64,000 nt of DNA, from positions 40,409 to 104,408 of the forward strand of contig CAMYNN010000001.1 of NCBI GenBank assembly GCA_947259735.1, given 5' to 3'. This DNA comes from Thermodesulfovibrionia bacterium. GTDB taxonomy: Bacteria > Nitrospirota > Thermodesulfovibrionia > UBA6902. The position numbers and the translations under genes were made by a program. Of the stretch, positions 40,991 to 64,000 are shown piece by piece. The stretch's first letter is position 1; each line of letters begins with the position of its first letter. A model generated the notes under the pieces. It did not search any database. It was not told the origin of the DNA and saw only the letters and a list, made by a program, of their open reading frames with translations.

Positions 40991-40991
40991 C

Positions 40992-48221: not shown

Positions 48222-48645
48222 AACAATATCAAAGATTCTGAAAATGAAAGACAGCAGGAAAAAGGAACTCGAACTTGACGTGAAAAAGGCCCATGACAGA
48301 GCAGATAAAGAGAAATCCAAATTGCATTCCATCGAACAAGACTACAAGGATACGGTACAGTGCTTTAATGAAAAGAGCGGTGATAGCGCAATGAATGTAA
48401 ACAAGATAAATTCCTATTACGATTACTTTGCTCGCATTCAGGGGAAAATAGATGAGCAGAAAAAGGTTCACGACCAGCGTGAAAGTGAACTGGAAGCATT
48501 AAAAAATAATCTGGTAGACGCCCATAAAGAAAAAAGGGCTTTTGAAATATTAAATGAAAAGGAAATTCGAAAAGATTTAAAGGAGAAACTGGATTCGGAA
48601 CAGAAAGAGGCCGACTTTCTTGCTCTCTACAGGAGAATTAAATGA
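48208..48645 (+). CDS. fliJ: Flagellar export chaperone FliJ.
   Basis: Coiled-coil protein of about 145 aa directly after fliI. Confidence 0.6.
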   Translation: MPRNKTISKILKMKDSRKKELELDVKKAHDRADKEKSKLHSIEQDYKDTVQCFNEKSGDSAMNVNKINSYYDYFARIQGKIDEQKKVHDQRESELEALKNNLVDAHKEKRAFEILNEKEIRKDLKEKLDSEQKEADFLALYRRIK

Positions 48646-49088
48646 AAAGAATTATTCTCAGCTTCATTGGTATTCTGATTTTCGTCGTCACCGCATACGG
48701 AGCGGAAGATATTGTCAGTGGTATTGAAAGACAGCGCAGTGAGCTGAACCAGAAAGAGGAAATCATAAGAAAAGAGACGGAGCGGTTGAAAACAATAAAG
48801 AAAGAAGTGGAAGAGGATATAGCCAAATATACTGACCTTCTCAATCAGATCGACAAGTCTCTGCAAAAAGCAGAGGAAGCGGGGAATAAAAGACTGAAAC
48901 CTGTAGCAAAGGCATATGAAGCGATGCCTCCGGAAGATGCTGCATCAAGGATTTCCGGACTTGATAATCTGACAGCAGTTCAGATTCTTCTGAAAATGAA
49001 CAGTAAAAAAGCGGGACTGGTCATTGGAATGATGGAAGCCCCGAAGGCTACAGTGCTGACAAAGGAAATCGCAAAACTGAAGAAGTAA
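48642..49088 (+). CDS. FlbB/MotE-like flagellar protein with an MgtE-N-like domain.
   Basis: Signal/TM N-terminus, then a coiled coil, then an MgtE_N-like segment. Positioned between fliJ and fliK. Confidence 0.45.
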   Translation: MKRIILSFIGILIFVVTAYGAEDIVSGIERQRSELNQKEEIIRKETERLKTIKKEVEEDIAKYTDLLNQIDKSLQKAEEAGNKRLKPVAKAYEAMPPEDAASRISGLDNLTAVQILLKMNSKKAGLVIGMMEAPKATVLTKEIAKLKK

Positions 49089-49444
49089 ACCAGAAGTAAC
49101 CCCTCCGTGAACTCCTTCCATAGCCGGAAGGGGTATGGAAATTTATCCCACCATTGAATACACATCAGAAGTTCAATTTTTGTATCAGCATGATATATGG
49201 GACTGATAGAATTATCGTTAGTGGGAAAAAAGTTTCTTCCGGGAAAGGAAAAACTTTCCTGTTGCTGAAAATATTTGTGTCTCTCTTCCAAAAACGATAG
49301 TGCATTCAAAGCTGTGCTGCATTACAGAAAAGAGACTATAAAAAAAATATTAGGTCCTAACCTTTTGAATATTTGCAATAATAAATAACATCCTCCTCCT
49401 TACTTTTATGAAAATTGGACAGTCAGTTAAGAATGTAAATAATT

Positions 49445-49459
49445 TGGCACGACTCTTGC
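49445..49459 (+). promoter_or_regulatory. Sigma-54 promoter TGGCACGactc-TTGC with exact GG-N10-GC spacing, ending about 13 nt before the fliK ATG.
   Basis: GG at 49446-47 and GC at 49458-59. Confidence 0.55.
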
Positions 49460-49472
49460 TTTTAAGCATGAC

Positions 49473-50684
49473 ATGGAGTTCTTACAGAACAGTCTAGCTT
49501 CATTGGAATTAATTCCGCAGAAAGGTACAGTGCAGGATTATAAACTGTACAACAGGTCTGATTCCGGTATATCGCGCTTTGAGTCGCTATTGCAGGGAAA
49601 ACGTGCAGTCCCTGAAAATAACCAGTTGTCCAGGAAAGATAACCGCTCCGAACCGGACATGAAACGGGCTGATGAATTAAAAGATGCTCATTCGTCCTGT
49701 TCACACTGTGCAGAGGACGATGATCGCTCTATACATGACAGGAATGAAGAGTTGAACCGGCAGAGCGATGAGAGGGCGGATAATCGTTCCAGGGAAACAG
49801 ATCAGACAGAAAATCATGCCGCAACTGAAAATGGTCAGGGGAATGAAGCCATTACAGTGGACAGTACGGCTCACATCGAGGCTGTATCTCATATGATTGC
49901 TGCCGGTGACGATAGTGATGTTACTGCAGGTGATGCCAGTGAGGGTGAATTAGAGGCCATATCTGATAATGAGAATGCTGCAGAAGAATTTCTCGATGAC
50001 CTTTCTGGTAAGTCTGTTTCAAAAACTGAGGCTGACAACTACGGGAAGTATTTTCCTGGCGGAGGATCGTCCGGTCTGGACTCTCAGGTAAAACAGGGAA
50101 ATACTCAAGATCCGGGCAACAGGATGATGGCAGAGCTCGCAGCTATGATGAACAGGAACAACGATGCCAGGAATATTTCTTTACAATCGCCGACTCTCCC
50201 TCAGGGGTTCTCAGCAGAGACGGAGACGGCCAATGTAAACTTTATAAATAATTCTACGACCGTCATGGAAAACAGGTCGGTGGAAAATCTTTTCTCAACG
50301 AATATATCCAGGGCCTCAGGATTTCAGGAAACGCTTGATAGCATTATATATGTGATCAAGGGCAAAAGCAGAATGGGTGTGGCCGTTGAGCATGAAAGTC
50401 TCGGAAAGTTAAATATCAATTTGAGTATGGACAAAGGCCTGGTAAATGTTCAGATAAGCGCAGCTGACAGGGTGGTCAGGGAAATGCTCGAAAACAATAT
50501 GCAGAATATTGTGGACAGGTTGAATGAGGAGGGAGTCAGCATTGGTGAGTTTTCCATAGCCCAGGAAGAACACCAGGAGAGGGAAGAGGGAAATTCATTT
50601 TTAGAGGGTGAAAATAATTCAAATAACAGCTATGAACCGGCAAGAGTATACAGCCAAAGCGGTCTTGTAAACATTTTTGCCTGA
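49473..50684 (+). CDS. fliK: Flagellar hook-length control protein FliK.
   Basis: Acidic and Gln-rich variable N-region. Conserved C-terminal FliK domain. An alternative GTG start at 49530 has an AAAGG RBS. Confidence 0.7.
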   Translation: MEFLQNSLASLELIPQKGTVQDYKLYNRSDSGISRFESLLQGKRAVPENNQLSRKDNRSEPDMKRADELKDAHSSCSHCAEDDDRSIHDRNEELNRQSDERADNRSRETDQTENHAATENGQGNEAITVDSTAHIEAVSHMIAAGDDSDVTAGDASEGELEAISDNENAAEEFLDDLSGKSVSKTEADNYGKYFPGGGSSGLDSQVKQGNTQDPGNRMMAELAAMMNRNNDARNISLQSPTLPQGFSAETETANVNFINNSTTVMENRSVENLFSTNISRASGFQETLDSIIYVIKGKSRMGVAVEHESLGKLNINLSMDKGLVNVQISAADRVVREMLENNMQNIVDRLNEEGVSIGEFSIAQEEHQEREEGNSFLEGENNSNNSYEPARVYSQSGLVNIFA

Positions 50685-50711
50685 CGCTGACGGTAGAGAG
50701 GAAGGAGTAAA

Positions 50712-51359
50712 ATGGACATATCAACAATAGGTGGAATCAGTGACAGCACAAAAAGTGCCATGGGAGCAAACATAATGGGTAAGGAGGATTTCCTCAATCT
50801 TCTCCTCCAGCAGCTGAGTCATCAGGATCCACTTAACCCCATGGACAGCACACAGTTTACCACTCAGCTTGCCCAGTTTACCTCACTGGAAGAGTTGAGC
50901 AATATTAATACTACCTTAAATGACGTCCTTTCATTTCAACAGTCAATGCAGAATGCCTCCGTCGCCGAACTCATCGGGAAGACAGTGAGCATGGAAGGGA
51001 ACACTTCAATATTGACAGACAGAGCAGAGTTTAATTATGAACTTGCAGACGATGCTTCTACTGTGGAAATATCAATCTATGATGGAACTGGAAGACTGGT
51101 ACGAACAGTAGAGAGCGCTTCTCAGGGCGCAGGATCACAGCAGTATGTGTGGGACGGAAAAGACAGTTTCGGGAACCAGATGAGTGAAGGATCCTACACA
51201 TTTGAAGTCAATGCCATGGATTTGTCCGGGAATCCCGTACAGGTACTGAGCACGGCATCGGGTATAGTGAAGGAGGTCATGTTCGAGGACGGACTCACCT
51301 TCATTCTGCTCAATAATGGTGTGAAAATTAATCTTAGTGATATCAAGTCTATAGGATAA
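50712..51359 (+). CDS. flgD: Flagellar hook capping protein FlgD.
   Basis: FLNLLLQQLSHQDPLNPMD N-terminal motif. Confidence 0.85.
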   Translation: MDISTIGGISDSTKSAMGANIMGKEDFLNLLLQQLSHQDPLNPMDSTQFTTQLAQFTSLEELSNINTTLNDVLSFQQSMQNASVAELIGKTVSMEGNTSILTDRAEFNYELADDASTVEISIYDGTGRLVRTVESASQGAGSQQYVWDGKDSFGNQMSEGSYTFEVNAMDLSGNPVQVLSTASGIVKEVMFEDGLTFILLNNGVKINLSDIKSIG

Positions 51360-51374
51360 AGGAGGCTACACACG

Positions 51375-52661
51375 ATGATGAGTTCATTATTTACAGGGGT
51401 CAGCGGCATGTACGCACATGGTACAGCCCTGTCAGTTATTGGAGACAATGTGGCCAATATGAACACCGTTGGATTCAAATCCAGCAGGGCGGCGTTCGGG
51501 GACATTCTCAGTCAGCAGGTCGGTCATTCCCAGGTGGGACGGGGAGTACAGCTTACTGATGTTTCACCCATATTTACGCAGGGTGCATTTGAGAATACAT
51601 CGAATGTATTTGACATGGCCGTTGACGGTGACGGTTTATTTATGATCAATGACGGGGGAGGTGCCTTCTACACGAGACAGGGGCAGTTTAACGTGGACAA
51701 GAACGGTGATGTGGTGAATCCCAGCGGGCATCAACTGCAGGGCTACCTCTATAACACGACCGGTACACAGACAAACGTAATAGGTGATATCAATGTTGCG
51801 GCCATTAACAGTCCACCAAACCCGACTTTGAATGTGTCCTTGACATCCAATCTTGATTCACGGGAGACCATCCCTGCAGCATTTGATGTAAACAATCCTG
51901 ACTCTACATCAAATTACTCAAGTTCCCTGACAGTATATGATTCACTGGGGAATGGACATGTAATTGAGCTTTACTTCAGAAAGTCAGCAGTTGCTGCTAC
52001 AGGGAACACATGGGAATGGTTTTCGGTGGTGAACGGGAATGACTCAGCGAGTGCAGCCACGGAGATACAGGCCCAGGGTACGCTCGGATTTGACAACAGC
52101 GGACGTCTGGACACGGAAAGTGCGGTTGCCTATCCCCTTGCTTCGGGCGGCTTTGATTTTAATGGTCTTGCAGCTCCGGGACAGGCGATTGACTTTGACT
52201 TTGGTACTTCAATAACAACAGACGGCGGCTCAGGACTGGACGGAGCGACACAGTATGGTAACGACTCAAGCACTGCGTTCCAGGACCAGGACGGATATTC
52301 TTCAGGATCCATGATGGAGATTACAATTGGTCCCGATGGAATTATTACCGGCATATTTACCAATGGACAGACGAGAGGCATTGCACAGGTTGCAATTGCG
52401 AAGTTTATATCGCCCACGGGCCTCACAAAAGTAGGGAAGGGTCTTTACGCTGAGTCAGTTGAGTCCGGACAGGCCCTGATCGGTACACCGGGAACATCGG
52501 GTACAGGACAGGTAATAGCAAACTCGCTGGAGATGAGCAATGTTGATCTCGCAGAGGAGTTTGTTAAAATGATTATGGCTCAGAGAGGATTCCAGGCAAA
52601 TTCCAGAGTAATATCAACATCAGATGAACTTCTGGTAGAACTCGTGAATCTGAAGAGATAG
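51375..52661 (+). CDS. flgE: Flagellar hook protein FlgE.
   Basis: N-terminal SGM...NVANMNTVGFK and the C-terminal ANSLEMSNVDL...EF rod/hook motifs. Confidence 0.9.
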   Translation: MMSSLFTGVSGMYAHGTALSVIGDNVANMNTVGFKSSRAAFGDILSQQVGHSQVGRGVQLTDVSPIFTQGAFENTSNVFDMAVDGDGLFMINDGGGAFYTRQGQFNVDKNGDVVNPSGHQLQGYLYNTTGTQTNVIGDINVAAINSPPNPTLNVSLTSNLDSRETIPAAFDVNNPDSTSNYSSSLTVYDSLGNGHVIELYFRKSAVAATGNTWEWFSVVNGNDSASAATEIQAQGTLGFDNSGRLDTESAVAYPLASGGFDFNGLAAPGQAIDFDFGTSITTDGGSGLDGATQYGNDSSTAFQDQDGYSSGSMMEITIGPDGIITGIFTNGQTRGIAQVAIAKFISPTGLTKVGKGLYAESVESGQALIGTPGTSGTGQVIANSLEMSNVDLAEEFVKMIMAQRGFQANSRVISTSDELLVELVNLKR

Positions 52662-52697
52662 CATCGGCTGACATGAGAGCGCGAACCAGTGCATAAG

Positions 52698-52735
52698 AAA
52701 AAAAGGTGCAGGAATAAATCCTGCACCTTTTTTTA
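52698..52735. terminator. Bidirectional rho-independent terminator: GGTGCAGGA-ataaa-TCCTGCACC flanked by an A-run and a T-run.
   Basis: 9-bp perfect stem, 5-nt loop, T8 downstream and A7 upstream. Confidence 0.75.
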
Positions 52736-53071
52736 TGGAGGTTCATCAAAATAAAAAATGCTCTGAACACTAAAATCATTTACAATAAGTGTACACTTTT
52801 TCTCGATATTACAATTTCAAGCATCAAAATACAATAAATTACAAATATAAAATCTAAAAAAACAGCTATGATTATTTTGGGAGTTTGAGGCTTTGGTTGC
52901 TGTGAATTTATATTAATTTGTAATGTGAGACTTGGTACTTGGAATTTTTTAAAGTAAAACGGCAGTAGGCAATAGATGCGTTTGCATCTGCTGTAAAATA
53001 AATCCTGACTATTGCTCATCAAAGAAGGGAACATACCGTGCCTTTCCCTCCTGAAAAAAATGCTTCTGTCT

Positions 53072-53383
53072 CTATCTGCTAACAGCCTGATAGACCTGGC
53101 CCGGTTTAAGCAGGACAAACTGCTCTGAGCCTTCTTCAGATTTTATTTGCTTGAATACTTCGCAGGACATGCATGACACTGACTTTTGGGCGAAATCACC
53201 CTGAACCATCCCGTCACAGAACGTGCCGGCTATTGACCAGCATATGCGCCCACCGTTTTTTCCGCTGTTCACGCCATTACTTGATACATTTGTTGATGCA
53301 GGACAGATTCCCAGGCTTCCGACATTCACTCCGCCCTGTTCCCTGCCGCATTTTTTGATCTCCCAGCAGTTTCGCTTATTCAT
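53072..53383 (-). CDS. Small Cys-rich protein (8 Cys) with a repeated CW motif (NCWEIKKCG...ICWSIAGTFC). Possibly a 'two-CW' sensory domain protein.
   Basis: GGGGGGAAG RBS. The CWxI...C module occurs twice. Own 177-bp upstream region. The family name is recalled from memory and was not checked. Confidence 0.5.
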   Translation of the reverse strand: MNKRNCWEIKKCGREQGGVNVGSLGICPASTNVSSNGVNSGKNGGRICWSIAGTFCDGMVQGDFAQKSVSCMSCEVFKQIKSEEGSEQFVLLKPGQVYQAVSR

Positions 53384-53560
53384 ACATCGCTTCCCCCCAT
53401 TCTTATCGGATCGTGATTATTCATAGCCATTCACATCAGCGTGTCTGTTTTCTCTTAAGAAAGTTATCGGCATTTATGAATAAACCTTTAGAGAAGAGCA
53501 GGAAATATCTCAGTGATGATGATAAAGTGACAGGGGGAAAGGTGAAGGGAGAATAAGAGG

Positions 53561-54601
53561 CTAGACTGAATTTATAATATACCCCGCAATTTCATCGATG
53601 GGAAGAATCTGGTCGGCAGCACCTGATTCCACAACTGACTTGGGCATTCCGTAAACGACACAGGTCTGCTCGCTCTCCGCGATTGTCCTTCCCCCCTTGT
53701 TCTTGATTTCCTTCATACCCTTGGAGCCGTCGTTCCCGAGGCCCGTAAGAATTACGCCGAGCACATGGCCGGAGAAACTTTCAACCGCTGAAAGCATGAG
53801 GACATCAACGGAGGGTCTGTAGATATATTCCCCTCTTTCCTCAGAAATACGTAGCACTGATTCTGTTATTTTTTTTCGTTCTATGCTCATATGACCTCTG
53901 CCGGGCGCGATATATATTGTGCCTTTTTTCACCAGGTCCCCCTCTTCGGCTTCTTTTACTTTAAGAGCGCTCAGTTGATTGAGCCTTTCAGCAAAGGGAC
54001 CGGTAAATGCAGGCGGCATATGCTGGGCAATGATAATTGGAACAGGAAAGTCTTCCGGTAAGCAGGTTAATATTTTTTGCAATGCCCTGGGACCGCCTGT
54101 TGAGGAACCTATAGCGACGACATTGATTTTCCTCTGCGCTATATAATTTGTCTTTTCGGGCATTTTCAGAGGTCCCGAAAGTTTATTGTTGAAGCCCTGG
54201 GACAGACCTTTGCTGCCGATATTCTTTATTTTTTCAATGAGTATTTCTTTAATTTTAACTATATTGATAGAAAGGTCTGATAAATTTTTGGGGATATAGT
54301 CTACGGCCCCTATGTCAAGGGCATCCAGTGTTAAATTGGCCCCTTCAGTAGTCAATGAACTGACCATCAGCACAGGCAGGGGATTCTTGTCCATTATCTG
54401 CTTCAGTGCCTCGATACCGTCCATCCGGGGCATCTCAACATCAAGTGTAACTAAATCAGGCTTCAGTGAAACAACTTTTTCCACAGCCTCAATTCCGTCA
54501 CGCGCAAAACCGACCACCTCAATTTCAGGATCGGAAACGATCATGCTTGAGAGAGTGTTCCTCATAAAAGCGGAGTCATCGACTATTAAAACCCTAATCA
54601 T
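53561..54601 (-). CDS. cheB: Chemotaxis methylesterase CheB (REC plus methylesterase domain).
   Basis: REC N-domain. Catalytic Ser/His/Asp methylesterase region. Confidence 0.9.
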   Translation of the reverse strand: MIRVLIVDDSAFMRNTLSSMIVSDPEIEVVGFARDGIEAVEKVVSLKPDLVTLDVEMPRMDGIEALKQIMDKNPLPVLMVSSLTTEGANLTLDALDIGAVDYIPKNLSDLSINIVKIKEILIEKIKNIGSKGLSQGFNNKLSGPLKMPEKTNYIAQRKINVVAIGSSTGGPRALQKILTCLPEDFPVPIIIAQHMPPAFTGPFAERLNQLSALKVKEAEEGDLVKKGTIYIAPGRGHMSIERKKITESVLRISEERGEYIYRPSVDVLMLSAVESFSGHVLGVILTGLGNDGSKGMKEIKNKGGRTIAESEQTCVVYGMPKSVVESGAADQILPIDEIAGYIINSV

Positions 54602-54639
54602 GAAAATTCCTCATTCTATTCATTTAGCGTTGTTTTTGG

Positions 54640-55107
54640 CTACGGTAATTGAACTGCTTCTCCCATCAGTTTATTGATGTCAATGATAATAATAAGCCTG
54701 TCATCAAGATTGGCAAGGCCTTCAATAAACTTGCTGCTCATGTCTGATGACATTGGCGGAGCAGCTTCTATCCTGCTTGCAGGAACTCTCAGCACTTCTG
54801 ACACGGAATCGACAACGAGACCATTTGTAATTCCTTCCAGTTCCATTATTATGATTCTTGATGTATCATCTGCGGGTTTGTCGTCAAAGGCAAATTTTTT
54901 TCTGAGATTTATTACTGGAATTACCTTGCCCCTCAGATTGATGACACCCTCAATGTAATCTGCCGAATTCGGAACCTTTGTGATCTCCGTTATCCTGTTT
55001 ATTTCCTGAACGTTCAGAATATCAACTGCGTACTCTTCATTGTTCAGAGTGAACGTTACAAACTGAAGGACTTCCTCCACTACTGATGTGTCGACTGATG
55101 CGTCCAT
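54640..55107 (-). CDS. cheW: CheW coupling protein.
   Basis: Single CheW domain of 155 aa. Confidence 0.85.
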   Translation of the reverse strand: MDASVDTSVVEEVLQFVTFTLNNEEYAVDILNVQEINRITEITKVPNSADYIEGVINLRGKVIPVINLRKKFAFDDKPADDTSRIIIMELEGITNGLVVDSVSEVLRVPASRIEAAPPMSSDMSSKFIEGLANLDDRLIIIIDINKLMGEAVQLP

Positions 55108-55181
55108 GGGTTTGCCTCCTGTTTATTTAATAAATTTATACTCTTCATATCTACTGGCAGCATTACCATCAATAATAAATA

Positions 55182-56423
55182 TTAAAAACCGAAATCATTG
55201 AGCATGGCCTCTACATCTGACTGGCTCACTTTTTCTTCCTCTTCAGCGTTATCTCTCTCAGTTAATTCCTCAGGTGATGATTCAGATTTCCCGGCTGCTT
55301 CGATTGCCTCTGTTTTTACGGACATCCCAAACTTGCTGACAAGGCTCAAAAGTTCAGATTCAACATTATTCACAAGGTTGATGACTTTTTTTATCGTCTG
55401 CCCGGTTATGTCCTGAAACTGTTGCGCTGTGAGTATGGAAGTCATATCATCATCGAGAGCGGACTTAAAGGATTCAAGGTAGCTGACTCTGTCATTGTCA
55501 TTCCCTATTTCTCTGACCTGCCTGGCAAATTCATCAGATTCCTCAAAATATCTCTCAACTATGCCCATTGTCCTGTTCGCGGCGTCTTCTGTCTTTGACA
55601 TGACAAACTGGAGTTTGTCAACGGCACTCGGGACGTCGTCCTTTGTTAACCGTTGAATACCGTTATCGAGCGATCCTTTGAACTCTTCGAGTGAAGTATG
55701 CAATTTTCTTGTGATATTTCCGACTTCCCTGAAAAGCCCGCCCTCTGTTTCCCTGCCGAGCTGCTCAACAATTACTTCAACCTGTTCGTATTCCTGTGCT
55801 TCGAGAGCATTGATGAAATTAATCATCAGATCACCGACGTTATGCTTTGGATTCTCCCTGTCGAGTTTACCGCGGAAGTATTCCTTTGCATTATGCAGCT
55901 CCGTTACCCTTACTTTTCCTGCGATGGAATCCACTTCCTTTGTAACTTCAACATTTACCCCATCTGACGATTCCTCTACATTAATTATGTTCTCTTCTAA
56001 AAGACTCATATCCTCAAGAGGCAGAAGATTTCTTGTATTCAGCAGAACAATCAGCTTATTGTCCAGTTTTGCTACACCTTCGACAGCGTCTGCATTGTTT
56101 TTGAAAAAACTATCGGGAGGCTCGATATCTGATTCATCAGCATTAACGACCCCGGTAATTTCATCAACGATGATTCCAAAGGTAATTTTCCCTGTTGCGA
56201 GGACGATGACGATATTTCCATTACATTCATTGCACTCTGAATCAAGGAGATTCTTAAGATTTACAATCGGGATGATATTCCCTCTCAGGTTTGATATTCC
56301 CCGAACATATCCTGGCATGTGCGGAAGGGCAGTTACGGACGGCATTCCGATTATTTCGCGAACCTTTAATATGGGAATCATATATTCGCTGGAATTTACG
56401 CTGAACCCTATATACTGATTCAA
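55182..56423 (-). CDS. Fusion of an N-terminal CheW domain to a C-terminal CheZ phosphatase. TTG start.
   Basis: N-terminal CheW-like domain. C-terminal TAQQFQDITGQTIKKV matches the E. coli CheZ catalytic AQDFQDLTGQVIKR. The final MLNDFGF matches the CheZ CheY-binding tail LLDSLGF. An AGGAGG RBS precedes the TTG. Confidence 0.75.
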   Translation of the reverse strand: MNQYIGFSVNSSEYMIPILKVREIIGMPSVTALPHMPGYVRGISNLRGNIIPIVNLKNLLDSECNECNGNIVIVLATGKITFGIIVDEITGVVNADESDIEPPDSFFKNNADAVEGVAKLDNKLIVLLNTRNLLPLEDMSLLEENIINVEESSDGVNVEVTKEVDSIAGKVRVTELHNAKEYFRGKLDRENPKHNVGDLMINFINALEAQEYEQVEVIVEQLGRETEGGLFREVGNITRKLHTSLEEFKGSLDNGIQRLTKDDVPSAVDKLQFVMSKTEDAANRTMGIVERYFEESDEFARQVREIGNDNDRVSYLESFKSALDDDMTSILTAQQFQDITGQTIKKVINLVNNVESELLSLVSKFGMSVKTEAIEAAGKSESSPEELTERDNAEEEEKVSQSDVEAMLNDFGF

Positions 56424-56515
56424 TGAGTCCTCCTGTTCGGCATAGGTAGTATCATTATTTTTTCATTCTTCAGCTGATTGTTCACTTCTCTCTGTATCAT
56501 GCCTGTCTTTCCGTA

Positions 56516-58393
56516 TCAATTTGCTGCTGCACCAAGGAGATTTCTTGACATACCTGTTACATCAAGAATGAATACCACTTTACCGTCACCTGTAATGGTC
56601 GCACCAAGAACATGTGATGATGATGTGTCAACACCGTCCAGTGTTTTTATGACAACCTCCTCCTGTCCGAGGAGTTTATCAACAGCCACACAGAACCTCT
56701 TTTCACCGAGGGCAACGACGACAAGGTATTTATGATCAGGATTTGTATCGCTGCTTTCATTCATTCCATTTCCGAGTATGCTGCCTAATTCGTAAAGTGG
56801 ACATACTTTGCCGCGGATAACAACTACGCTCTGCCCTGTGACATTATCTATTTCTTCATTTGATAATCTGAGAGTTTCTTCTATTGGGGAGAGTGGTATC
56901 GCATATTTTGCTCCTTTCACCTCTACCATGAGTGCCTGCATAATTGCGAGTGTTAAAGGAATGCAAATTTTGAATGTAGTTCCCTCATCCTTTTTTGTTG
57001 CTATTTCGACAAAACCATTCAGGAGGGATATATTTGTCTTAACAACATCCATGCCGACACCACGGCCGCTTAACTCCGTGGCTTCCTTTTTAGTGGAAAA
57101 TCCGGGCATGAAAATTATTTCGGCAGCTGCCTCGTCACTCATTTTATTGGCTTCCTCTTCAGTGAGAATGCCTTTCTTAAGAGCGGTCTTTTTCAACATT
57201 TCCACATCCAGCCCTTTGCCGTCATCAGAAATTTCAATGATGATCTGGTTGCCCTGCTGGAATATATTAATAACGACTTTTCCTTTTGGTGGCTTGCCTT
57301 TGGCAATGCGCTCCTCGGTGGACTCCAGCCCATGGTCAATGGAGTTTCTTAAAATGTGTGTCATGGGATCACCGATATGTTCAATAACAGATTTGTCAAC
57401 TTCTGTGTTTTCTCCGACGATGAGGAGTTCCACGTCTTTGTTGACCGATGCAGACATGTCCCTGATCAGCCTCGGGAATTTACCGAGGACTTTCTTTATG
57501 GGCTGCATTCTTATTTTCATTACAGCAAGTTGCATATCGGAGGTTACCCTGTCCAGAAATGAAACAGTTTCCGTCAGTGTTTCCACCTGAGGGTCCTGGG
57601 AATACTTCTGATCAAAATATCGTGATATGTTCAAAAGTCTGTTTCTTACCAGAACAACCTCCCCTGCTAGATCCATAACCTTGTCGATGCGGTCAACGTC
57701 TACCCGCAGGTTCTGGGCAGTATCCTTCCCCTTGTGACCCGGTGTCTGCTGGACCTTTCCTTTCGTCTGCTCAATGGCAGGACCGCTGTCAATACTTTTT
57801 TCATCGATCATATTTCTGATTGTTACGTCTTCCGCTAATTCAGGGACTGATTGTTCCGTTTCAGAACTTTGAGGCACTTCATTTATCTCCTGCTCTGTAT
57901 GGGACGATTTCTCTGCTTCGGGTTCTTCCAGTTTCACCTCCTGGGTACCGGTAGTCTCCTTTCCTTCCGGATTAGTATTGCTTTGAGTATCATGAGAAAT
58001 TTCGGATGCGTCATTTAATGTTGATTCCAGTTCATGAACGAGTGGTGAAACGTCCTCTTCAATACCGTCTTTTGACTTCAAATGTCCGAGGAGAAGGCGA
58101 AGCATATCAATGGATTTAAGAATAACGTCCATAAGCTTTTTTGATAGGGAGATGTCGCCGTCTCTAAGCTTCTTCATTATATTTTCAGATGTGTGCGCAA
58201 CATCCACAAGACGCTGAAAACCCAGAAACCCTGCCGCACCTTTGATCGTATGCATTGAACGAAATATATCATTCAGAAGGTCGACGTCTTCCCCTTTTTG
58301 CTCCAGTTCCACAAACAGAGGCTCGATCCTGTCAAGTGACTCTTCGGCTTCTGTAATAAACTCCGATATTATTTCATCCATTTCATCATTCAT
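56516..58393 (-). CDS. cheA: Chemotaxis histidine kinase CheA (P1/Hpt, linker, P3, P4, P5). No obvious P2 domain.
   Basis: Hpt motif HTIKGAAGFLG. HATPase G-boxes. C-terminal CheW-like domain. Confidence 0.9.
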   Translation of the reverse strand: MNDEMDEIISEFITEAEESLDRIEPLFVELEQKGEDVDLLNDIFRSMHTIKGAAGFLGFQRLVDVAHTSENIMKKLRDGDISLSKKLMDVILKSIDMLRLLLGHLKSKDGIEEDVSPLVHELESTLNDASEISHDTQSNTNPEGKETTGTQEVKLEEPEAEKSSHTEQEINEVPQSSETEQSVPELAEDVTIRNMIDEKSIDSGPAIEQTKGKVQQTPGHKGKDTAQNLRVDVDRIDKVMDLAGEVVLVRNRLLNISRYFDQKYSQDPQVETLTETVSFLDRVTSDMQLAVMKIRMQPIKKVLGKFPRLIRDMSASVNKDVELLIVGENTEVDKSVIEHIGDPMTHILRNSIDHGLESTEERIAKGKPPKGKVVINIFQQGNQIIIEISDDGKGLDVEMLKKTALKKGILTEEEANKMSDEAAAEIIFMPGFSTKKEATELSGRGVGMDVVKTNISLLNGFVEIATKKDEGTTFKICIPLTLAIMQALMVEVKGAKYAIPLSPIEETLRLSNEEIDNVTGQSVVVIRGKVCPLYELGSILGNGMNESSDTNPDHKYLVVVALGEKRFCVAVDKLLGQEEVVIKTLDGVDTSSSHVLGATITGDGKVVFILDVTGMSRNLLGAAAN

Positions 58394-58425
58394 TCGTGGT
58401 CCTCCATACCGGTCAACGGTAAGAA

Positions 58426-58821
58426 TTAACTCTGTGCCTGCAGTCTTTCATATATTTTTTCCATTTTTTCTTTTAACACTTCTGCTGTAAATGGTTTTAC
58501 GATGTAGTTGTTGACGCCAGCCTGTATCGCTGCGATAACTTTTTCTTTCTCTGCTTCTGCGGTGACCATGAGAATTGGAGTGTCTTTCAATTCAATGTTG
58601 CCCCGTACCGCTTTTACAAGTTCAAGCCCATCCATGTTGGGCATGTTCCAGTCGCTGACAACGAACCCAAAGCCTCCTCCCTGAAGTTTTGAAAACGCCT
58701 GAGCACCGTCTTCTGCTTCTTCTATGCTTTCAAATCCAATTTGTCTGAGTAGATTTTTTACGATTCTTCTCATAGTTGAAAAATCGTCAACCACAAGCAC
58801 TTTTGCCTTAAGATCAATCAT
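58426..58821 (-). CDS. cheY: CheY, very close to enterobacterial CheY.
   Basis: [15 protein letters not shown]...[12 protein letters not shown]...PILMVTAEA...[11 protein letters not shown]. Confidence 0.9.
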
Positions 58822-59206
58822 GTTGTATACCTCCTTTGGCGAACATTTCTTGAATAATGTTTTTTATGTTTTGTGCAATTACATCTCCCGTAACAGGTTT
58901 TATCAGATAACCGTTCGCTCCATAACGAAGAGCCTTTTCCCGCTCTTCATCATCGCTCTCTGTGGTTACCATGAGGATCGGGAGTTCTTTCAGATCGGAG
59001 TTCGATCGAACTGCTTTAATCAGTTCAAGGCCGTCCATATAGGGCATGTTCAGATCTGCCATAATGAGATTGACCGGATCGGTGCCGAGTTTTTCAAGGG
59101 CGTCAAGACCGTTCTCAGCGAACACTACCGAATATCCTCGTGTCTTTAAATAGTGTCCAAGCAGTTTTCTTGTTGTCTGACAATCATCGACAATCATGAT
59201 TTTCAT
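58814..59206 (-). CDS. Second CheY-like single-domain response regulator.
   Basis: REC domain. Overlaps the downstream cheY by 8 nt. Confidence 0.85.
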
Positions 59207-59271
59207 GGTGTTACCTCAAATATATTAAATAATGTAATCTCTCTCTCTAATTTCATTTCACATTACCGCGT

Positions 59272-60096
59272 TTACACCTTTTGATAGAAAATGACTTTAT
59301 TTATAACAGTCGGTCTGAATGCCTTCGTTACATTGTGGAGACTCTCAGAGGTGCCGATTATAAGGTAGCCCTCCGGATTTAATCGATCATAAAGGTTGGA
59401 AACTGCTGCCTGCTTCGCCTTTGCATCAAAGTAAATGAGCACGTTTCTGCAAAAAATAACATCCATTCTTTGTATTGAATTAAGATAGTTTCCGTTAAAC
59501 AGGTTCCCATTGATGAATTTGACAGATTCTCTTATGTCTGAATTCAGAGCAAAGGATTGTCCGCCTCCGGTAAAATGTTTTTTCATGTAATGCTCCGGAA
59601 TGTTTCTCACAGAGTAGGAGTTGAATACAGCATTCTTTGCAGAGTCCAAAACTCCCGTGCTCAAATCAGAAGCATGGATTTCATAATCTGACGATCCCCT
59701 TCGGTTTTTCAGAAGCATCATGGAAATTGTGTAAGGTTCTTCGCCAGTAGAACAAGCCGCTGACCATATTTTTACCGGTTTAGAGCCCTTCTTCTCTTTC
59801 AGTAATTCGGGAAACAGTTCATCGGTAAAGACGCTTAACTGGTGGGGTTCTCTGAAAAAATAGGTTTCATTTGTGGTAATCGCATCAAAGAGTCTTGTCA
59901 ATTGATTGCCGTTTGAACTGATCTTTATAAGTCTTAGATAGTCGTCAAAACTGTCAAGCTTGTTTTCCTGCAATATTCTTGTCAACCGGTTTGTAATGAG
60001 ATATTTTTTTGAATCCGAAATATAGATACCGCTATTGTCGTATATAATGGCTCTCAGCTCTTTGAATGTGGAATCAGAGAGAGACATCATCGGCAT
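59272..60096 (-). CDS. cheR: Chemotaxis methyltransferase CheR.
   Basis: CheR N-helical domain plus a SAM-dependent methyltransferase domain. Confidence 0.85.
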   Translation of the reverse strand: MPMMSLSDSTFKELRAIIYDNSGIYISDSKKYLITNRLTRILQENKLDSFDDYLRLIKISSNGNQLTRLFDAITTNETYFFREPHQLSVFTDELFPELLKEKKGSKPVKIWSAACSTGEEPYTISMMLLKNRRGSSDYEIHASDLSTGVLDSAKNAVFNSYSVRNIPEHYMKKHFTGGGQSFALNSDIRESVKFINGNLFNGNYLNSIQRMDVIFCRNVLIYFDAKAKQAAVSNLYDRLNPEGYLIIGTSESLHNVTKAFRPTVINKVIFYQKV

Positions 60097-61514
60097 GCAA
60101 CTCCGGAGTTGAAATCCTGTGCAAGCCTTTCAGCGACTTCCTTGAGGTCATCATTTAATTCGTCCATGGAAGAGATGAAGCGTTTTAAATCAATACGCAT
60201 AAGCGCATGTATGCATTCGTAGATGACATCGTCATATGGCTCGTTCTGAATCATGCTCATAAGTGGATCAAATGCTGTTTTCTCACAGATCTTTCCGAGT
60301 GCCGTTGCAGCAGTTTTTCTGACATGACTGTCGGAGTCATCAATCGCTTCGATGAAACAATCTTTTTCCTGCCCGTCGGATGTTTGAGACAGTGAAGTGA
60401 TGCTTGCCCGTCTTATGTCTCTGAAATCATGATTTGTCAGAAAGATGAGATCGGGCACGGCATCTTTGCACCCTAATTCACCGACTATCTCAATAGCTAT
60501 TGTTTTCCCTCTGTATCTAAGAGAATCGTTCCGCAGTAAAGATATGAGTGCTCCACTGCATCCGAAACTGTAAATGGCCTCTTTGATGAAACTCAGTTTC
60601 TCTTCATTTTCAGGATAAGAGAGATCGAAGGAACCTGCCGCATCCACCAGATGATACAGTGCCTGCTCATCTCTTAATGAAACCAGTCCTCTTACAGCCG
60701 ATGTTATATCGTTCCAGTCGCCTTCTTTCATCATGCCAATCAGAAAGTCTGTGATCCCCGGAATCGGAGGAACGGATCCCATCATACATAAACTCTTTAT
60801 TGTTGCAGTCTTTTCAATTCCTTTGGCTGTTCTCAAATGATCGGTAAGACTTTGAACAGCTTCAGGAGTGTTAAATGTACAGAGTGTGTCAATTGCTGCA
60901 AACCTGACTGGATCAGAAGAGCTTTTTATGAGATGTGCAATTGAATCTGTGACACTGACCTCTTTCATGTCCACAAGTGCTTCCAGTGCTGAGAAACAGA
61001 CCCACTCCTCATCGCTTAAAGCATGCACCAGCTGGGGGACTGCCTTTTTGTACTTTAATCTCCCGAGGGTTCTGGCAGCTGACGCCCTCACATTTGCGTT
61101 TTCATCACTGGTGAGCATTTCAACAATTTTTTCCGGATAAGTGCAGTACTGAATGTCATAGATGAGGTCAACGGCGAATTTTCTTATATCATGGTCCTTA
61201 TCTCTCAGAAGGACGTACAAAAGAGGCACGGCAACCCGCTCCATTTCTTTCAGAATTATGATCGCTGTATTTCTCAGAAATGCCTCCTCTCTCAATAGGG
61301 GGAGGAGCATATATACCGTTGATTCCTTTTTTAATTTCATAAGAGAACGCATAGCTGCATCCTGAACACCGAGGTTTTCATCCCTCAGTGCCTTGATCAG
61401 CGGATAAAGCACCCTGTCGTCACCGTCGGAAAGCGCCTCGGCTGCGGCACGCCTCTTTGAGGAATCAGCATCGTTCAGATTCCTGAGGTACTTGTTGAGC
61501 GTTGTCGAATGCAT
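60087..61514 (-). CDS. HEAT-repeat protein (PBS-lyase HEAT-like repeats).
   Basis: Repeated ...VRxxAxxALG... helical repeats across 475 aa. Overlaps the cheR start by 10 nt. Confidence 0.65.
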   Translation of the reverse strand: MHSTTLNKYLRNLNDADSSKRRAAAEALSDGDDRVLYPLIKALRDENLGVQDAAMRSLMKLKKESTVYMLLPLLREEAFLRNTAIIILKEMERVAVPLLYVLLRDKDHDIRKFAVDLIYDIQYCTYPEKIVEMLTSDENANVRASAARTLGRLKYKKAVPQLVHALSDEEWVCFSALEALVDMKEVSVTDSIAHLIKSSSDPVRFAAIDTLCTFNTPEAVQSLTDHLRTAKGIEKTATIKSLCMMGSVPPIPGITDFLIGMMKEGDWNDITSAVRGLVSLRDEQALYHLVDAAGSFDLSYPENEEKLSFIKEAIYSFGCSGALISLLRNDSLRYRGKTIAIEIVGELGCKDAVPDLIFLTNHDFRDIRRASITSLSQTSDGQEKDCFIEAIDDSDSHVRKTAATALGKICEKTAFDPLMSMIQNEPYDDVIYECIHALMRIDLKRFISSMDELNDDLKEVAERLAQDFNSGVACR

Positions 61515-61838
61515 TGTTATCCTTACTGTGGTACAGAATCTCCACTGATGGATGATCCAATTACCTATGCGAAGCAGACCATGTATTTATTTGAATGTAT
61601 TACCGTTCATCTATGTTTAAATTATCGGAATAAAAGGGGGATATCTTTAGCATCAAAGCATTGTTCTCAATGTTTGAATGTCAGAGAGAAAGGACGGTGG
61701 GTGAATTATATGATTAGCTTGCTTAGCGAGCTTCATGGAGGACGTTGTGAGCCCAGCAACGGTAAGGCAGCGGGGTATGTCACATGGTGCAGCAGGGAAG
61801 AATAAACAGAATACCTGCAGGGAAGCACTGCACCCTGT

Positions 61839-63143
61839 TTACCCTGTCTCATTTAAGGCCGTCATATCGCCGGGTACATCATTTTCTGTCATTACCATGT
61901 TTCTCCCCGACCGCTTGGCGAAGTAAAGAGCTGTATCAGCTCTTTCAAATACCCGCGTAGAGTCATCGCCTTCCCTGAATGTGCTGATACCGACGCTTAC
62001 CGTGAGGGGTATGTCCTTCCCTTTATAGGAAAAGATGGCTTCATCTATATATTCCCTTATGCCTTCTCCAGCCTTCTCGGCACCGGTGAGATCCGTATGG
62101 GGAAGAATAGCCACAAATTCTTCCCCCCCGTATCGTGCTACATAATCATTTGTCCGCAAGCGTTTTTTCAGCAGAGAAGCTATTTTAACAAGGGCAAGGT
62201 CCCCAACTTTGTGGCCGAAGGTGTCGTTAATGTTCTTGAAAAAATCTATGTCGCAGATCAACAGAGATGCCTGCACATTATACCTGTCGAGATTGGCCAG
62301 TGTTTCTGTTATTCTTTGATCATAGGCTTTCCGGTTAAAGAGGCCGGTGAGATTGTCACGGAATGATTCATACTGCATTTCCCGTGCTTTTCTACGCATC
62401 TCTTCAGCTTCAGCTCTAATGGCTTCTATCTGAACATTCATGTATTTCAATGAATCCTCTGTCTCTTTAAGGCGCACTATGTCCTGATCTCTCCTCTTTT
62501 TGATGCATTTGTTGATATTGCCGATCTTGCTTAACACGGCATTTTTGATGCTGTCGATGCTCCCCTCGGTGTCAAAATCCTTTTTAATGGAAGAGATGTC
62601 AGAATAGATAAATTCATCGGCCTGCCTGTCACTGCTGTATTTTTTCTGCTGGGTATATACTTCTTTTGACAACTGCCGTTCCGTTTCACCAAGATACTGC
62701 ATAGTCTGAACGATGAAGTTTTCCATTTCATTGTTGCGTACCGAAATAGAATCAATATATTTCTTTATTATCTGGATTGGTGAATCGAGCCAGTCTGTAG
62801 ACTTGCCGGCAAGTACTTTATCATCCAGCTTTCCTTTCAGATCATCGAGGTTGTCAATCATGGAGCTTGGCACCAGTTCAGAAAACCTGTCCAGTATCTT
62901 TGTTGATAATTCCCTCAGATATTGAGGGGTTATATCACTCTGTGGCGTTATTGATGTGGTGCCTGAAAGAAGTTTCTTTACAGGATCACTCCAGAACATT
63001 TTATCGGCTATGAGTTTGCTGTCAATCTGTTTTCTGTTATCATGTGAAAGCTCTTTCAGTATTTTAAGGACTTCATCGGCAAAAACAGATATTTTTTCCT
63101 CGTAATGAAGGTTCTGATCGAAAAGTTCAGCTGATTGATTCAC
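61839..63143 (-). CDS. GGDEF diguanylate cyclase with an uncharacterised ~270-aa helical N-terminal domain. GTG start.
   Basis: RxxD I-site and GGEEF. An AGGAGG RBS precedes the GTG at 63143. Confidence 0.8.
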   Translation of the reverse strand: MNQSAELFDQNLHYEEKISVFADEVLKILKELSHDNRKQIDSKLIADKMFWSDPVKKLLSGTTSITPQSDITPQYLRELSTKILDRFSELVPSSMIDNLDDLKGKLDDKVLAGKSTDWLDSPIQIIKKYIDSISVRNNEMENFIVQTMQYLGETERQLSKEVYTQQKKYSSDRQADEFIYSDISSIKKDFDTEGSIDSIKNAVLSKIGNINKCIKKRRDQDIVRLKETEDSLKYMNVQIEAIRAEAEEMRRKAREMQYESFRDNLTGLFNRKAYDQRITETLANLDRYNVQASLLICDIDFFKNINDTFGHKVGDLALVKIASLLKKRLRTNDYVARYGGEEFVAILPHTDLTGAEKAGEGIREYIDEAIFSYKGKDIPLTVSVGISTFREGDDSTRVFERADTALYFAKRSGRNMVMTENDVPGDMTALNETG

Positions 63144-63176
63144 TTACGATACCTCCTGATTTGTCTTTTGCATGAG

Positions 63177-63204
63177 AAATCACTGCAGTAGTGCTTAGTG
63201 ATTT
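63177..63204. promoter_or_regulatory. Inverted repeat AAATCACT-N12-AGTGATTT in the 5' region of the GGDEF gene.
   Basis: Perfect 8-bp arms, 35-60 nt upstream of the GTG start on the minus strand. Confidence 0.3.
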
Positions 63205-63431
63205 ATCACACTTCAAATATAGGGGATAGCCCCATAATATTGTATCGGACTTTATTTTTAAAACTTGAATGCTATAAGAATATTATTTTTGAGATATTAG
63301 AAAACTACCCATATTTAAATGATAAAATAAGATATCAAAGACGGGATGGAGAGTGAAATCCTCGCAGGCACTCGTTAAACGATTGATGAGGAATTCAAGT
63401 GGATATCACAAATTGAAGGAGGACGATACTC

Positions 63432-64000
63432 TCAGACAGTGTTTGCGCTGTCTTTATGTAAAACATCATTCTCGCTTTTAACCTGGTTTCTGCCCGAACT
63501 CTTGGCAAGGTACAGAGCTTTGTCGGCTCTTTCAAAAGCGGTGCTGCTGTCATCTCCTTTTTGGAAAGAACTGACGCCGACACTTATTGTCAGAGGAATT
63601 TTCTCGTCCCTATAAGAAAACACCGATTTGTCAATGTATGCGCGGATCCCGTCTCCTGCCTTTACTGCACCGTCCAGATCGGTATCATAAAGAATAATGG
63701 CAAATTCCTCACCGCCGAACCGTGATATGAAGTCGATTGTCCGAAGACGTTCTGTAAGCAGGGCCCCCAGCTTTTTCAGGGCAAGGTCTCCTATCTTATG
63801 GCCGTAGGTGTCGTTTATTTTTTTGAAATAATCAATGTCGCAGATTAACAGAGAGGCCACCACATCATCATCTTCCAGGGTAGTAAGAAGTTCCTTCATT
63901 CTCTGGTCATAGGCCCGCCGGTTATAAAGACCCGTAAGTTTATCATGGACAGCGTCATATTCAATCTCATCAGACCTCTTTTGAATTTCATCAGCTTCAC
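63432..64000 (-). CDS. Paralogous GGDEF diguanylate cyclase. The N-terminus runs off the window.
   Basis: GGEEF, RxxD and a DKLTGLYNRRAYDQR domain start. The frame stays open to position 64000. Confidence 0.8.
   Translation of the reverse strand, partial: EADEIQKRSDEIEYDAVHDKLTGLYNRRAYDQRMKELLTTLEDDDVVASLLICDIDYFKKINDTYGHKIGDLALKKLGALLTERLRTIDFISRFGGEEFAIILYDTDLDGAVKAGDGIRAYIDKSVFSYRDEKIPLTISVGVSSFQKGDDSSTAFERADKALYLAKSSGRNQVKSENDVLHKDSANTV

Follow-up and report, generated by a model that had tools for sequence, protein, structure and literature searches.

Accessory proteins built on the CheW module and targeted to the chemosensory array are known in bacteria, among them CheV, in which CheW is joined to a receiver domain (REC), and the CheW-CheR fusion of spirochaetes. 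Likewise, alpha-solenoid partners of the methyltransferase CheR are known as fused TPR domains, for example in FrzF and WspC. In the Wsp system the regulator WspR is a REC-GGDEF protein, and the E. coli class III flagellar regulon includes the cyclic di-GMP (c-di-GMP) genes pdeH and ycgR. The chemoreceptor zinc-binding domain (CZB) is a small metal-binding sensory module with a 3His/1Cys site, and it occurs at the C termini of methyl-accepting chemotaxis proteins (MCPs), for example H. pylori TlpD, and in diguanylate cyclases such as DgcZ. E. coli CheZ is localized to arrays through CheA-short (Cantwell et al. 2003, as cited in PMC2577667), and the MCP genes of other bacteria are commonly dispersed in the genome (PMC2577667). 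The HEAT_PBS protein OE2401F of Halobacterium salinarum is needed for flagellar switching (PMC2666748), and Cpc7 of Myxococcus xanthus binds CheY7 (Darnell et al. 2014, as summarized in PMC11514114). Here we compare these systems with a chemosensory (che) gene cluster from a Thermodesulfovibrionia bacterium, which occupies positions 53072..64000 of a 64,000-nucleotide (nt) stretch of contig CAMYNN010000001.1, hereafter called the window.

The list of open reading frames (ORFs) agrees with the initial annotation of this cluster in that all 11 genes lie on the minus strand, in the order GGDEF1, GGDEF2, HEAT, cheR, cheYa, cheYb, cheA, cheW::cheZ, cheW, cheB and two-CW. Domains were assigned with Pfam and NCBIfam profile searches, which upheld every earlier domain call, including those for CheZ, HEAT and two-CW. 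HEAT, the GGDEF genes and two-CW had been regarded as non-standard neighbors of chemotaxis genes; this description also stands, and these genes recur in relatives. Our preferred reading, to which we assign a probability of roughly 0.8, is that the cluster is a chemotaxis operon of the flagellar, CheZ-bearing type whose receptors are encoded elsewhere.

Control of the flagellar motor had already been proposed for this cluster. The proposal is supported by an E. coli-like CheY, by the catalytic residues of CheZ, by flanking flagellar genes and by promoters of the sigma-28 type. CheYb, previously described as very close to the enterobacterial protein, passes the NCBIfam CheY equivalog model NF007901 with 191.2 bits (cut-off 189). 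It shares 64% identity with Salmonella CheY and retains D12, D13, D57, T87, Y106 and K109. CheYb is the probable motor-switch partner. CheYa, which is 40% identical to CheYb, scores 96 bits against the same cut-off of 189 and does not pass the model.

The cluster is embedded in a flagellar region between fliL/fliM and flgE/flgD/fliK. On its downstream side it is convergent with flgE, flgD and fliK, and the genes fliJ, fliI, fliH, fliG, fliF, flgC and flgB stand farther upstream in the window. Past the window end, the public contig continues with the remainder of GGDEF1 and then with fliL and fliM, which diverge from the cluster on the opposite strand. In this setting, MCPs from elsewhere in the genome would form arrays with CheA and CheW, CheA would phosphorylate CheYb, and CheYb would act on the FliM/FliN switch, with CheR and CheB supplying methylation-based adaptation. 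The phosphorylation motif of CheA reads HTIKGAAG in the sequence. CheA has no recognizable P2 (CheY-binding) domain, and its residues ~110-225, which link P1 to P3, are of low complexity and rich in E, Q, S and T.

When species-representative genomes were scanned, 53 related loci emerged, nearly all of which are labeled Nitrospirota (Thermodesulfovibrionia, Dissulfurispiraceae). One of the 53, a Methylococcaceae contig (L050), matches the CheZ part only. The loci comprise close relatives (n = 27) and distant relatives (n = 26), and the presence of each gene was counted only in those loci that include enough flanking sequence (Table 1). The core synteny is kept across the 53 loci.

The CheZ of this operon is fused to a CheW domain. 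The fusion, and with it the presence of a CheZ phosphatase, had been noted in the initial annotation and is borne out by Pfam scores, catalytic residues and alignment to a solved CheZ. The protein scores 119 bits for CheW (PF01584) and 120.5 bits for CheZ (PF04344), the latter in two stretches that cover the profile, against cut-offs of 23.5 and 30.7. The CheZ equivalog model PRK11166 is not reached (72.8 against 257), as one would expect of a fused or distantly related protein. Residues 1-~135 form the CheW domain, which is followed by a linker with a beta-rich segment, by a CheZ hairpin (~229-364) that carries D338 and Q342, by a disordered linker (368-398) and finally by a putative peptide for binding phosphorylated CheY (CheY-P), QSDVEAMLNDFGF. 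When residues 317-362 are aligned with HMMER to residues 122-167 of E. coli CheZ (1kmi_Z), no gaps are needed, and D338 corresponds to D143 and Q342 to Q147. Both residues are invariant in 65 homologues. The C-terminal motif QSDVE..L..FGF, which we take to resemble the CheY-P-binding peptide of E. coli, is invariant or nearly so in the same homologues.

Structural comparisons support the assignment of the N-terminal domain. It matches the CheW structure 2ho9 in the PDB with 78.9 bits, and Foldseek aligns it with E. coli CheW in core signaling units (6s1k_C and 8c5v_E) at a template modeling score (TM) of 0.83-0.86 and a root-mean-square deviation of 2.3-2.8 Å. The AlphaFold2 monomer model contains the CheW barrels, a hairpin made of residues 229-305 and 310-364 with a predicted local distance difference test score (pLDDT) of ~70-80, the disordered segment 368-398 and a C-terminal helix at 401-410. 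Residues 143-178 appear as a three-stranded beta segment of low confidence in this model, and this segment holds the invariant G169, E175 and A179.

Hundreds of two-domain homologues exist, and among the matches listed (120) they are 54-100% identical to the fusion. The CheW domain of the fusion is 36% identical to the stand-alone CheW of the cluster, and its CheZ part shows 43% identity with the stand-alone CheZ encoded after cheY on the Methylococcaceae contig. A stand-alone cheW went undetected in 19 of 25 distant loci, where the fusion is thus the sole in-cluster CheW. Because it provides the only CheW detected in the cluster of most distant relatives, we argue that the CheW domain of the fusion is functional. 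We lean toward the view that this domain docks the CheZ phosphatase in the receptor-kinase array, in which case the fusion would place a CheY-P phosphatase inside the array. A full-text literature search for a CheW-CheZ fusion found no paper. Co-localization of the kinase and the phosphatase is a long-discussed design principle of chemotaxis, and a CheW-CheZ fusion that spans the phylum would fix this principle genetically. The protein could also be used as it is to test how the response depends on where the phosphatase is placed.

The initial annotation emphasized that no gene in the cluster carries an MCP signaling domain. This observation is correct. We conducted a six-frame tblastn search with a Tsr signaling domain as the query (E ≤ 10), and no such domain was found in any of the six frames of the 64-kb window or in the 2.4 kb past its end. 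Thus, no chemoreceptor gene lies just beyond the window, where the remainder of GGDEF1, fliL and fliM are found instead. The same query detects MCPs at E ≤ 1e-23 in 25 of the 53 related loci and is therefore sensitive enough. An MCP remnant in the window was likewise ruled out, given that the gap from cheA to cheW::cheZ is only 92 nt and that tblastn returned nothing at E ≤ 10.

The further proposal that a receptor-less composition marks the pathway did not survive the comparison with relatives, because MCP genes occur in or beside the cluster in those 25 loci. An MCP gene is located between cheA and cheW::cheZ in eight loci, four of which (L002, L003, L005 and L049) are among the closest, with 63-66% identity in CheW-CheZ. 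The in-cluster MCP at this position has 459 amino acids and an MCPsignal score of 177.6 bits, and inspection of its sequence suggests two hydrophobic segments and a HAMP-like region. In L002, ~280 amino acids follow the HAMP region as judged by eye, and by rough estimate this length is compatible with a 40-heptad receptor. Among the distant loci, 16 of 26 carry MCP genes, mostly after cheB. The Dissulfurispiraceae-type members of this group (L023-L047) have no stand-alone cheW after the fusion gene, and their MCP genes stand after cheB or are inserted before it. The absence of a receptor gene from the cluster in the window is incidental and ordinary and is not a feature of the pathway. Receptors encoded elsewhere are expected because CheR and CheB are intact.

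All junctions in the cluster had been described as short or overlapping. This holds true for the block from HEAT to cheB only, whereas gaps of 288, 324 and 177 nt separate the GGDEF genes and two-CW from their neighbors. Both strands of the window were scanned for exact matches to the sigma-28 (FliA) consensus TAAA-N14-17-CCGATA, and three were found where 0.5 would be expected. Two of these are on the minus strand, 5' of HEAT and of two-CW, so that a sigma-28 regulon motif of the type TAAA-N15-GCCGATAA stands upstream of both of these units (61623-61649 and 53465-53490). The third (45253..45276, plus strand) is located just inside the start of fliG, on the strand of the flagellar genes, and is either an internal promoter or a chance match. 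GGDEF1 has its own sigma-28-type promoter match in the public contig, beyond the window end. Scans for the sigma-70 consensus and for generic terminators gave no more matches than expected from shuffled sequence.

The related loci (984 kb) contain 48 matches to the sigma-28 motif on the cluster strand versus 8 on the opposite strand. Moreover, 39 of these 48 fall within 200 nt 5' of HEAT (20 loci), two-CW (10 of 19 loci) or a GGDEF gene (9 of 14 loci). The best reading of these data is that the cluster comprises several separately transcribed units of the late-flagellar type, which would be the GGDEF gene or genes, the eight genes from HEAT to cheB, and two-CW. Separate GGDEF and che transcripts are suggested because of the gaps of 288 and 324 nt, the hairpin after GGDEF2 and the sigma-28-type promoter before HEAT. 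We infer that these promoters function from the consensus matches and from their conservation.

The first gene of the eight-gene unit encodes a HEAT-repeat protein whose matches in the PDB are alphaRep/PBS-HEAT designs. In 46 of 48 loci the stop codon of HEAT and the start codon of cheR overlap, as ATGnnTGA in 28 of them and as ATGA in 18. The overlap is also found in the distant group, where the HEAT protein is ~615 amino acids long and has extra C-terminal repeats (e.g., L024 4740..6587). This conserved arrangement indicates translational coupling and suggests a protein that is a stoichiometric partner of CheR. We tentatively propose that the HEAT protein is an alpha-solenoid partner of CheR, although our confidence in this assignment is limited. 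A CheR-TPR fusion is present in one metagenome locus (L093). The paper on the Geobacter che clusters (PMC2577667) does not mention HEAT proteins.

An alternative is that the HEAT protein is a target or adaptor of CheY-P, with CheYa as its dedicated partner, and that the two provide a second output. The precedents for such a role are OE2401F and Cpc7, which share the repeat class HEAT_PBS with the protein described here, and a second conserved CheY is encoded two genes downstream in every HEAT-bearing locus. However, the tightest link of HEAT is with cheR, via the overlapping codons, and cheYa is itself ~65 nt from cheR. Both HEAT and CheYa are universal in the cluster, and their co-occurrence is therefore not discriminating. 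In addition, repeat proteins match each other non-specifically, so homology to OE2401F or Cpc7 is not readable from such matches. Both models are compatible with these data; we rate a role as a CheY-P target as rather improbable and lean toward a partnership with CheR. The overlap with cheR would then point to an unstudied partner of the adaptation enzyme.

At the other end of the cluster, the protein that had been called Cys-rich and similar to 'two-CW' belongs to the NCBIfam family NF045718, which includes 1,338 representatives at 50% clustering. Among 59 diverse members, C6, W7, C12, C27, C48, C71 and C74 are invariant, and C56 is ~90% conserved. The AlphaFold2 model of the protein is confident, with a pLDDT of 82.8 and a predicted TM score (pTM) of 0.72, and a PDB search with it gave no significant match to any solved fold. 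No paper on the two-CW domain was found in a literature search. In 48 longer members, two-CW is fused to histidine kinase (11), PAS (9), REC (7), Ser/Thr kinase (5), cyclic nucleotide-binding (5), PilZ (5), GGDEF (2) and other domains. Such a spectrum of fusions is the profile of a signaling input module.

A metagenome scan with a nine-sequence alignment revealed direct connections between two-CW and chemotaxis proteins. Fusions of two-CW with CheW are found in two loci from other lineages, L093 (4129..4947) and L099 (104..919). The first of these fusions scores 111.9 bits for NF045718 and 110.4 bits for Pfam CheW, and its operon encodes CheW, CheR-TPR, two-CW-CheW, an MCP and CheA. MCPs with a C-terminal two-CW occur in L091 (2510..4708) and L107 (25..1680). 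Furthermore, a stand-alone two-CW gene adjoins MCP, CheW or CheA genes in five unrelated loci (L070, L081, L085, L127 and L132). The association of two-CW with che genes is recurrent but not universal. These che fusions in other organisms, the constant location of the gene behind cheB and a sigma-28-type promoter of its own make the two-CW protein a candidate accessory of the chemotaxis array, and we consider the odds of this to be just short of even. The module is rich in Cys and probably binds a metal or a cluster, and it would dock on the array or signal to it. CZB is its closest functional analogue, and the protein may act in trans as a metal- or redox-sensing module. A broader proposal, which we regard as possible but doubtful, is that two-CW is an undescribed cytoplasmic Cys-rich input to the array (metal or Fe-S, redox-responsive) and that, together with an array-built-in CheZ and a HEAT-CheR partnership, it would form a composition unseen in studied model organisms.

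The two-CW and GGDEF genes could also be mere neighbors, ordinary signaling genes that entered the gaps between flagellar operons and play no part in chemotaxis. Each of the two is absent from many core-bearing relatives, each has its own promoters and long gaps, and most two-CW members are found in non-che contexts, fused to many kinds of signaling domains. On the other hand, the positions of these genes are conserved, with GGDEF between fliL and HEAT and two-CW between cheB and flgE, and the sigma-28 promoter motif recurs before both across many genomes. Independent fusions of two-CW with CheW and MCPs, as well as in-operon placements, in unrelated lineages also speak for a connection. We consider it unlikely that these genes are simple bystanders, and we prefer to view two-CW as a candidate accessory of the array. 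Regardless, because two-CW and GGDEF are missing from many relatives that retain the che core, they are dispensable accessories. The CheW and MCP fusions give two-CW its first testable functional context, and they raise the possibility of a redox or metal input to arrays in anaerobes.

The full GGDEF1 protein in the public contig has 431 amino acids, with a coiled-coil N terminus followed by the GGDEF domain (Pfam GGDEF, PF00990, 118-144 bits), whereas its frame in the window runs off the end. Its motifs are RTID...GGEEF, and the active site and I-site read RTIDFISRFGGEEF. GGDEF2 has a helical coiled-coil N terminus of ~255 amino acids, a GGEEF active site and an RxxD I-site (RTND), and this region reads RTNDYVARYGGEEF. 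Active cyclases were recognized by the signature GG(D/E)EF with an RxxD I-site five residues upstream. Both proteins carry this signature, and they are predicted to be active cyclases that are inhibited by their product. They are 44% identical to each other and represent old paralogues, of which GGDEF2 is the copy conserved in relatives.

The N-terminal domain of GGDEF2 has seven relatives in a word-indexed homologue search. GGDEF2 does not match the Pfam model DGCcoil (PF20975), and GGDEF1 stays below the cut-off of 26.7 with 12.8 bits, whereas two orthologues of GGDEF2 (P0394 and P0396) pass the model at 28.6 and 32.2 bits. The GGDEF proteins in the window are probably divergent members of the DGCcoil-GGDEF type. 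A literature search on DGCcoil found no paper.

The initial annotation suggested that the cluster is a pathway variant that couples motility control to c-di-GMP. A link between c-di-GMP and motility through co-regulation is plausible, and the GGDEF cyclases appear to be expressed with the late flagellar genes. In contrast, mechanistic coupling to c-di-GMP through the Che proteins is not supported, as the GGDEF genes lie outside the che operon, and the che core is kept without a GGDEF orthologue in 8 of 21 close and 19 of 19 distant loci. Moreover, Pfam searches found no receiver domain on GGDEF1 or GGDEF2, and phosphotransfer from CheA to these proteins is impossible for that reason.

These observations also bear on the idea of a receptor-independent or otherwise atypical pathway similar to Wsp, in which the GGDEF proteins belong to the che operon and form its output. 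Two GGDEF genes are indeed located directly upstream on the same strand, no MCP is encoded in the 64 kb, and 13 of 21 close relatives have a GGDEF orthologue at the corresponding site. The window also encodes two further GGDEF proteins and two HD_5 domains (one in a REC-GGDEF protein and one in a DUF3391 protein). However, a Wsp-like system combines a REC-GGDEF regulator with an MCP in the che operon, whereas here no receiver domain and no MCP were found and the GGDEF genes stand outside the tight operon, set apart by the gaps of 288 and 324 nt, by the hairpin after GGDEF2 and by a separate sigma-28-type promoter before HEAT. The patchy distribution of the GGDEF gene, the MCP genes in or beside the cluster of 25 of 53 relatives, the conserved CheR and CheB, which imply methylated receptors, and the presence of a motor-type CheY and of CheZ in the pathway all speak against this reading, which we judge to be very unlikely. 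Many additional che clusters control functions other than flagellar rotation, such as twitching motility, biofilm formation or development. Such a role is even less credible for this cluster, because although its non-canonical parts (HEAT and a second CheY) are typical of alternative-function systems such as M. xanthus Che7, flagellar structural genes flank it on both sides, it contains sigma-28-type promoters and a canonical CheZ, and its CheYb passes the equivalog model and keeps Y106 and K109.

Other c-di-GMP genes are present in the window. A set of touching or overlapping genes on the plus strand (33870..35795) encodes a single-domain receiver (33870..34250), a CheC/CheX-type phosphatase (34252..34896) and a PAS-GGDEF protein (34893..35795). 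This operon, which adjoins the sigma-54 flagellar regulators, provides a second type of CheY-P phosphatase, and it represents a more direct-looking link between a CheY-like protein and c-di-GMP than do the GGDEF genes of the cluster. A REC-GGDEF-HD_5 protein (HD-GYP-type) and a DUF3391-HD_5 protein are encoded at 30174..31751 and 23973..25217, respectively, both on the plus strand. The organism clearly places c-di-GMP enzymes around its flagellar genes.

Several points weigh against our reading of the cluster as a flagellar operon of CheZ type with the accessory genes described above. The AlphaFold2 model of CheW-CheZ is only moderate (pLDDT 64.9), and the Foldseek search against the PDB returned matches to CheW and P5 only, so that the helical part did not bring up CheZ (1KMI). 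The promoters were called from consensus matches in a metagenome-assembled genome. Within the window, GGDEF2 is not preceded by an exact sigma-28 match, and fliA is not among the genes identified there. In addition, 9 of 25 close loci lack two-CW, as do 23 of the 24 distant ones, and the missing GGDEF genes noted above (8 of 21 close and 19 of 19 distant loci) must be added to this. Most metagenomic two-CW loci have no che neighbor, though many of these contigs are short. Finally, no PilZ effector was found among the ORFs of at least 110 amino acids that were scanned near the cluster.

The coordinates of the cluster features, the scores that support them and the presence of each gene in relatives are listed in Table 1. 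Positions 45182..64000 of the window are 99.16% identical to a near-identical public contig (L001; CAMYJE010000002.1, assembly GCA_947258725.1), with 155 mismatches and 3 gaps over 18.8 kb. The window is thus either a strain variant of that contig or an edited copy, and these differences explain why GGDEF2 and the HEAT protein gave no exact-sequence match, whereas the CheW-CheZ protein is on record. A hairpin divides the two-CW unit from the convergent flgE gene. It accounts for the only RNA-family matches in 52500-64000, all of which are below threshold, on both strands; neither a c-di-GMP riboswitch nor any other RNA family was found in this interval. An ORF of 84 amino acids (52780..53034, minus strand) is called downstream of two-CW in the public record, and it has no Pfam match and no homologue in the 53 related loci. 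We treat this segment as non-coding, and it is probably a long 3' untranslated region that ends at the bidirectional terminator.

Table 1. Features of the che cluster and their conservation. Positions are those of the window; aa, amino acids. Junctions are given toward the next gene in cluster order, and the last two columns give the loci that carry the gene among those with enough flanking sequence.
Feature	Position	Strand	Evidence	Junction to next gene	Close relatives	Distant relatives
GGDEF1 (partial)	63432..>64000	-	Pfam GGDEF 118 bits	288 nt gap		
GGDEF2	61839..63143	-	434 aa; Pfam GGDEF 154 bits	324 nt gap	13/21 (GGDEF between fliL and HEAT)	0/19 (GGDEF between fliL and HEAT)
Terminator-like hairpin, few bases 3' of GGDEF2 stop codon	61816..61832	-	consensus scan; weak			
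Sigma-28 (FliA)-type promoter match TAAAGATATCCCCCTTTTATTCCGATA, ~108 nt 5' of HEAT start codon	61623..61649	-	exact motif match			
HEAT/PBS-lyase-type repeat protein, first che-operon gene	60087..61514	-	475 aa; HEAT_2 173 bits, HEAT_PBS 82 bits	10 nt overlap	20/22	21/21 (41/43 overall)
CheR methyltransferase	59272..60096	-	274 aa (272 aa from ATG at 60090); CheR 190.7 bits, CheR_N 51 bits	65 nt gap	22/24	23/23
CheYa, single-domain response regulator	58814..59206	-	130 aa; Response_reg 98.5 bits	8 nt overlap	22/24	25/25
CheYb, E. coli-type CheY	58426..58821	-	131 aa; Response_reg 102.9 bits	32 nt gap	22/24	25/25
CheA histidine kinase	56516..58393	-	625 aa; Pfam Hpt, H-kinase_dim, HATPase_c, CheW (P1 Hpt, P3, P4, P5)	92 nt gap	22/24	25/25
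CheW-CheZ fusion	55182..56423	-	413 aa; Pfam CheW 119 bits, CheZ 120.5 bits	74 nt gap		
Stand-alone CheW coupling protein	54640..55107	-	155 aa; Pfam CheW 138 bits	38 nt gap	27/27 (detected in locus)	6/25 (detected in locus)
CheB methylesterase, N-terminal receiver, last che-operon gene	53561..54601	-	346 aa; CheB_methylest 229.6 bits, Response_reg 78 bits	177 nt gap	26/26	24/24
Sigma-28-type promoter match, perfect TAAA-N15-GCCGATA, 81 nt 5' of two-CW start codon	53465..53490	-	motif scan			
Two-CW protein	53072..53383	-	103 aa, seven Cys; NCBIfam NF045718 103.9 bits vs cut-off 35		16/25 (after cheB)	1/24 (after cheB)
Bidirectional intrinsic terminator (A-run, 8-bp GC-rich stem, U-run)	52698..52734	.	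sequence read; fold -24 kcal/mol, z = -6.3			

Farther from the cluster, the plus strand at 35898..42299 encodes a set similar to FlrA/FlrBC, composed of a sigma-54 activator, a TPR protein, a PAS histidine kinase and a REC-sigma-54 activator. Exact matches to the sigma-54 motif TGGCAC-N5-TTGC are located at 37473..37487 and 49445..49459, just 5' of the TPR gene and of fliK. When one mismatch was allowed, the count of this motif in the whole window was not above chance.

Compared with known systems, the GGDEF genes resemble those of Wsp and the E. coli genes pdeH and ycgR in that they adjoin che and flagellar genes and seem to be part of the late flagellar regulon. The cyclases described here differ from WspR because they have no receiver domain, and there is no Wsp-like phosphorelay. 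They also differ from pdeH and ycgR, because they are cyclases and not a phosphodiesterase and because no PilZ brake was identified nearby. The two-CW domain is similar to CZB as a small module found at MCP C termini and on GGDEF proteins, and it occurs on CheW, histidine kinase and PilZ proteins as well. This distribution is in keeping with a sensory input domain of the cytoplasm. Unlike CZB, it has six to seven invariant Cys residues and no solved-fold match, it is unrelated in sequence, and here it forms a stand-alone protein of 103 amino acids. The HEAT protein shares with OE2401F and Cpc7 its HEAT_PBS-class alpha-solenoid nature and its encoding within a che cluster. It is distinguished from both by the coupling of its gene to cheR through the stop/start overlap and by its universal presence in the flagellar che operon of this lineage.

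As a whole, the operon comes closest to the CheZ-type flagellar clusters of proteobacteria (mocha/meche in E. coli; cheY-cheZ-cheA-cheB...cheW in Pseudomonas and Vibrio), with which it shares CheA, CheW, CheR, CheB, a motor-type CheY and CheZ. It is also similar to them in its site among flagellar genes, in its late-flagellar promoter type and in having receptors that are largely encoded elsewhere. Unlike these clusters, it belongs to the phylum Nitrospirota, has another gene order and an extra CheY, couples HEAT to cheR, encodes a CheA without a recognizable P2 domain and carries a CheZ that is fused to CheW. If CheW-CheZ docks in the array as we propose, it would parallel CheV and the spirochaete CheW-CheR fusion, in which a CheW module brings an adaptation or signal-termination activity to the array. 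It would likewise parallel the pairing of CheZ with CheA-short in E. coli, in that a kinase and its opposing phosphatase would be co-localized. What sets the protein apart from CheV, CheW-CheR and CheA-short is that its cargo is CheZ itself, which is joined covalently to the CheW module.

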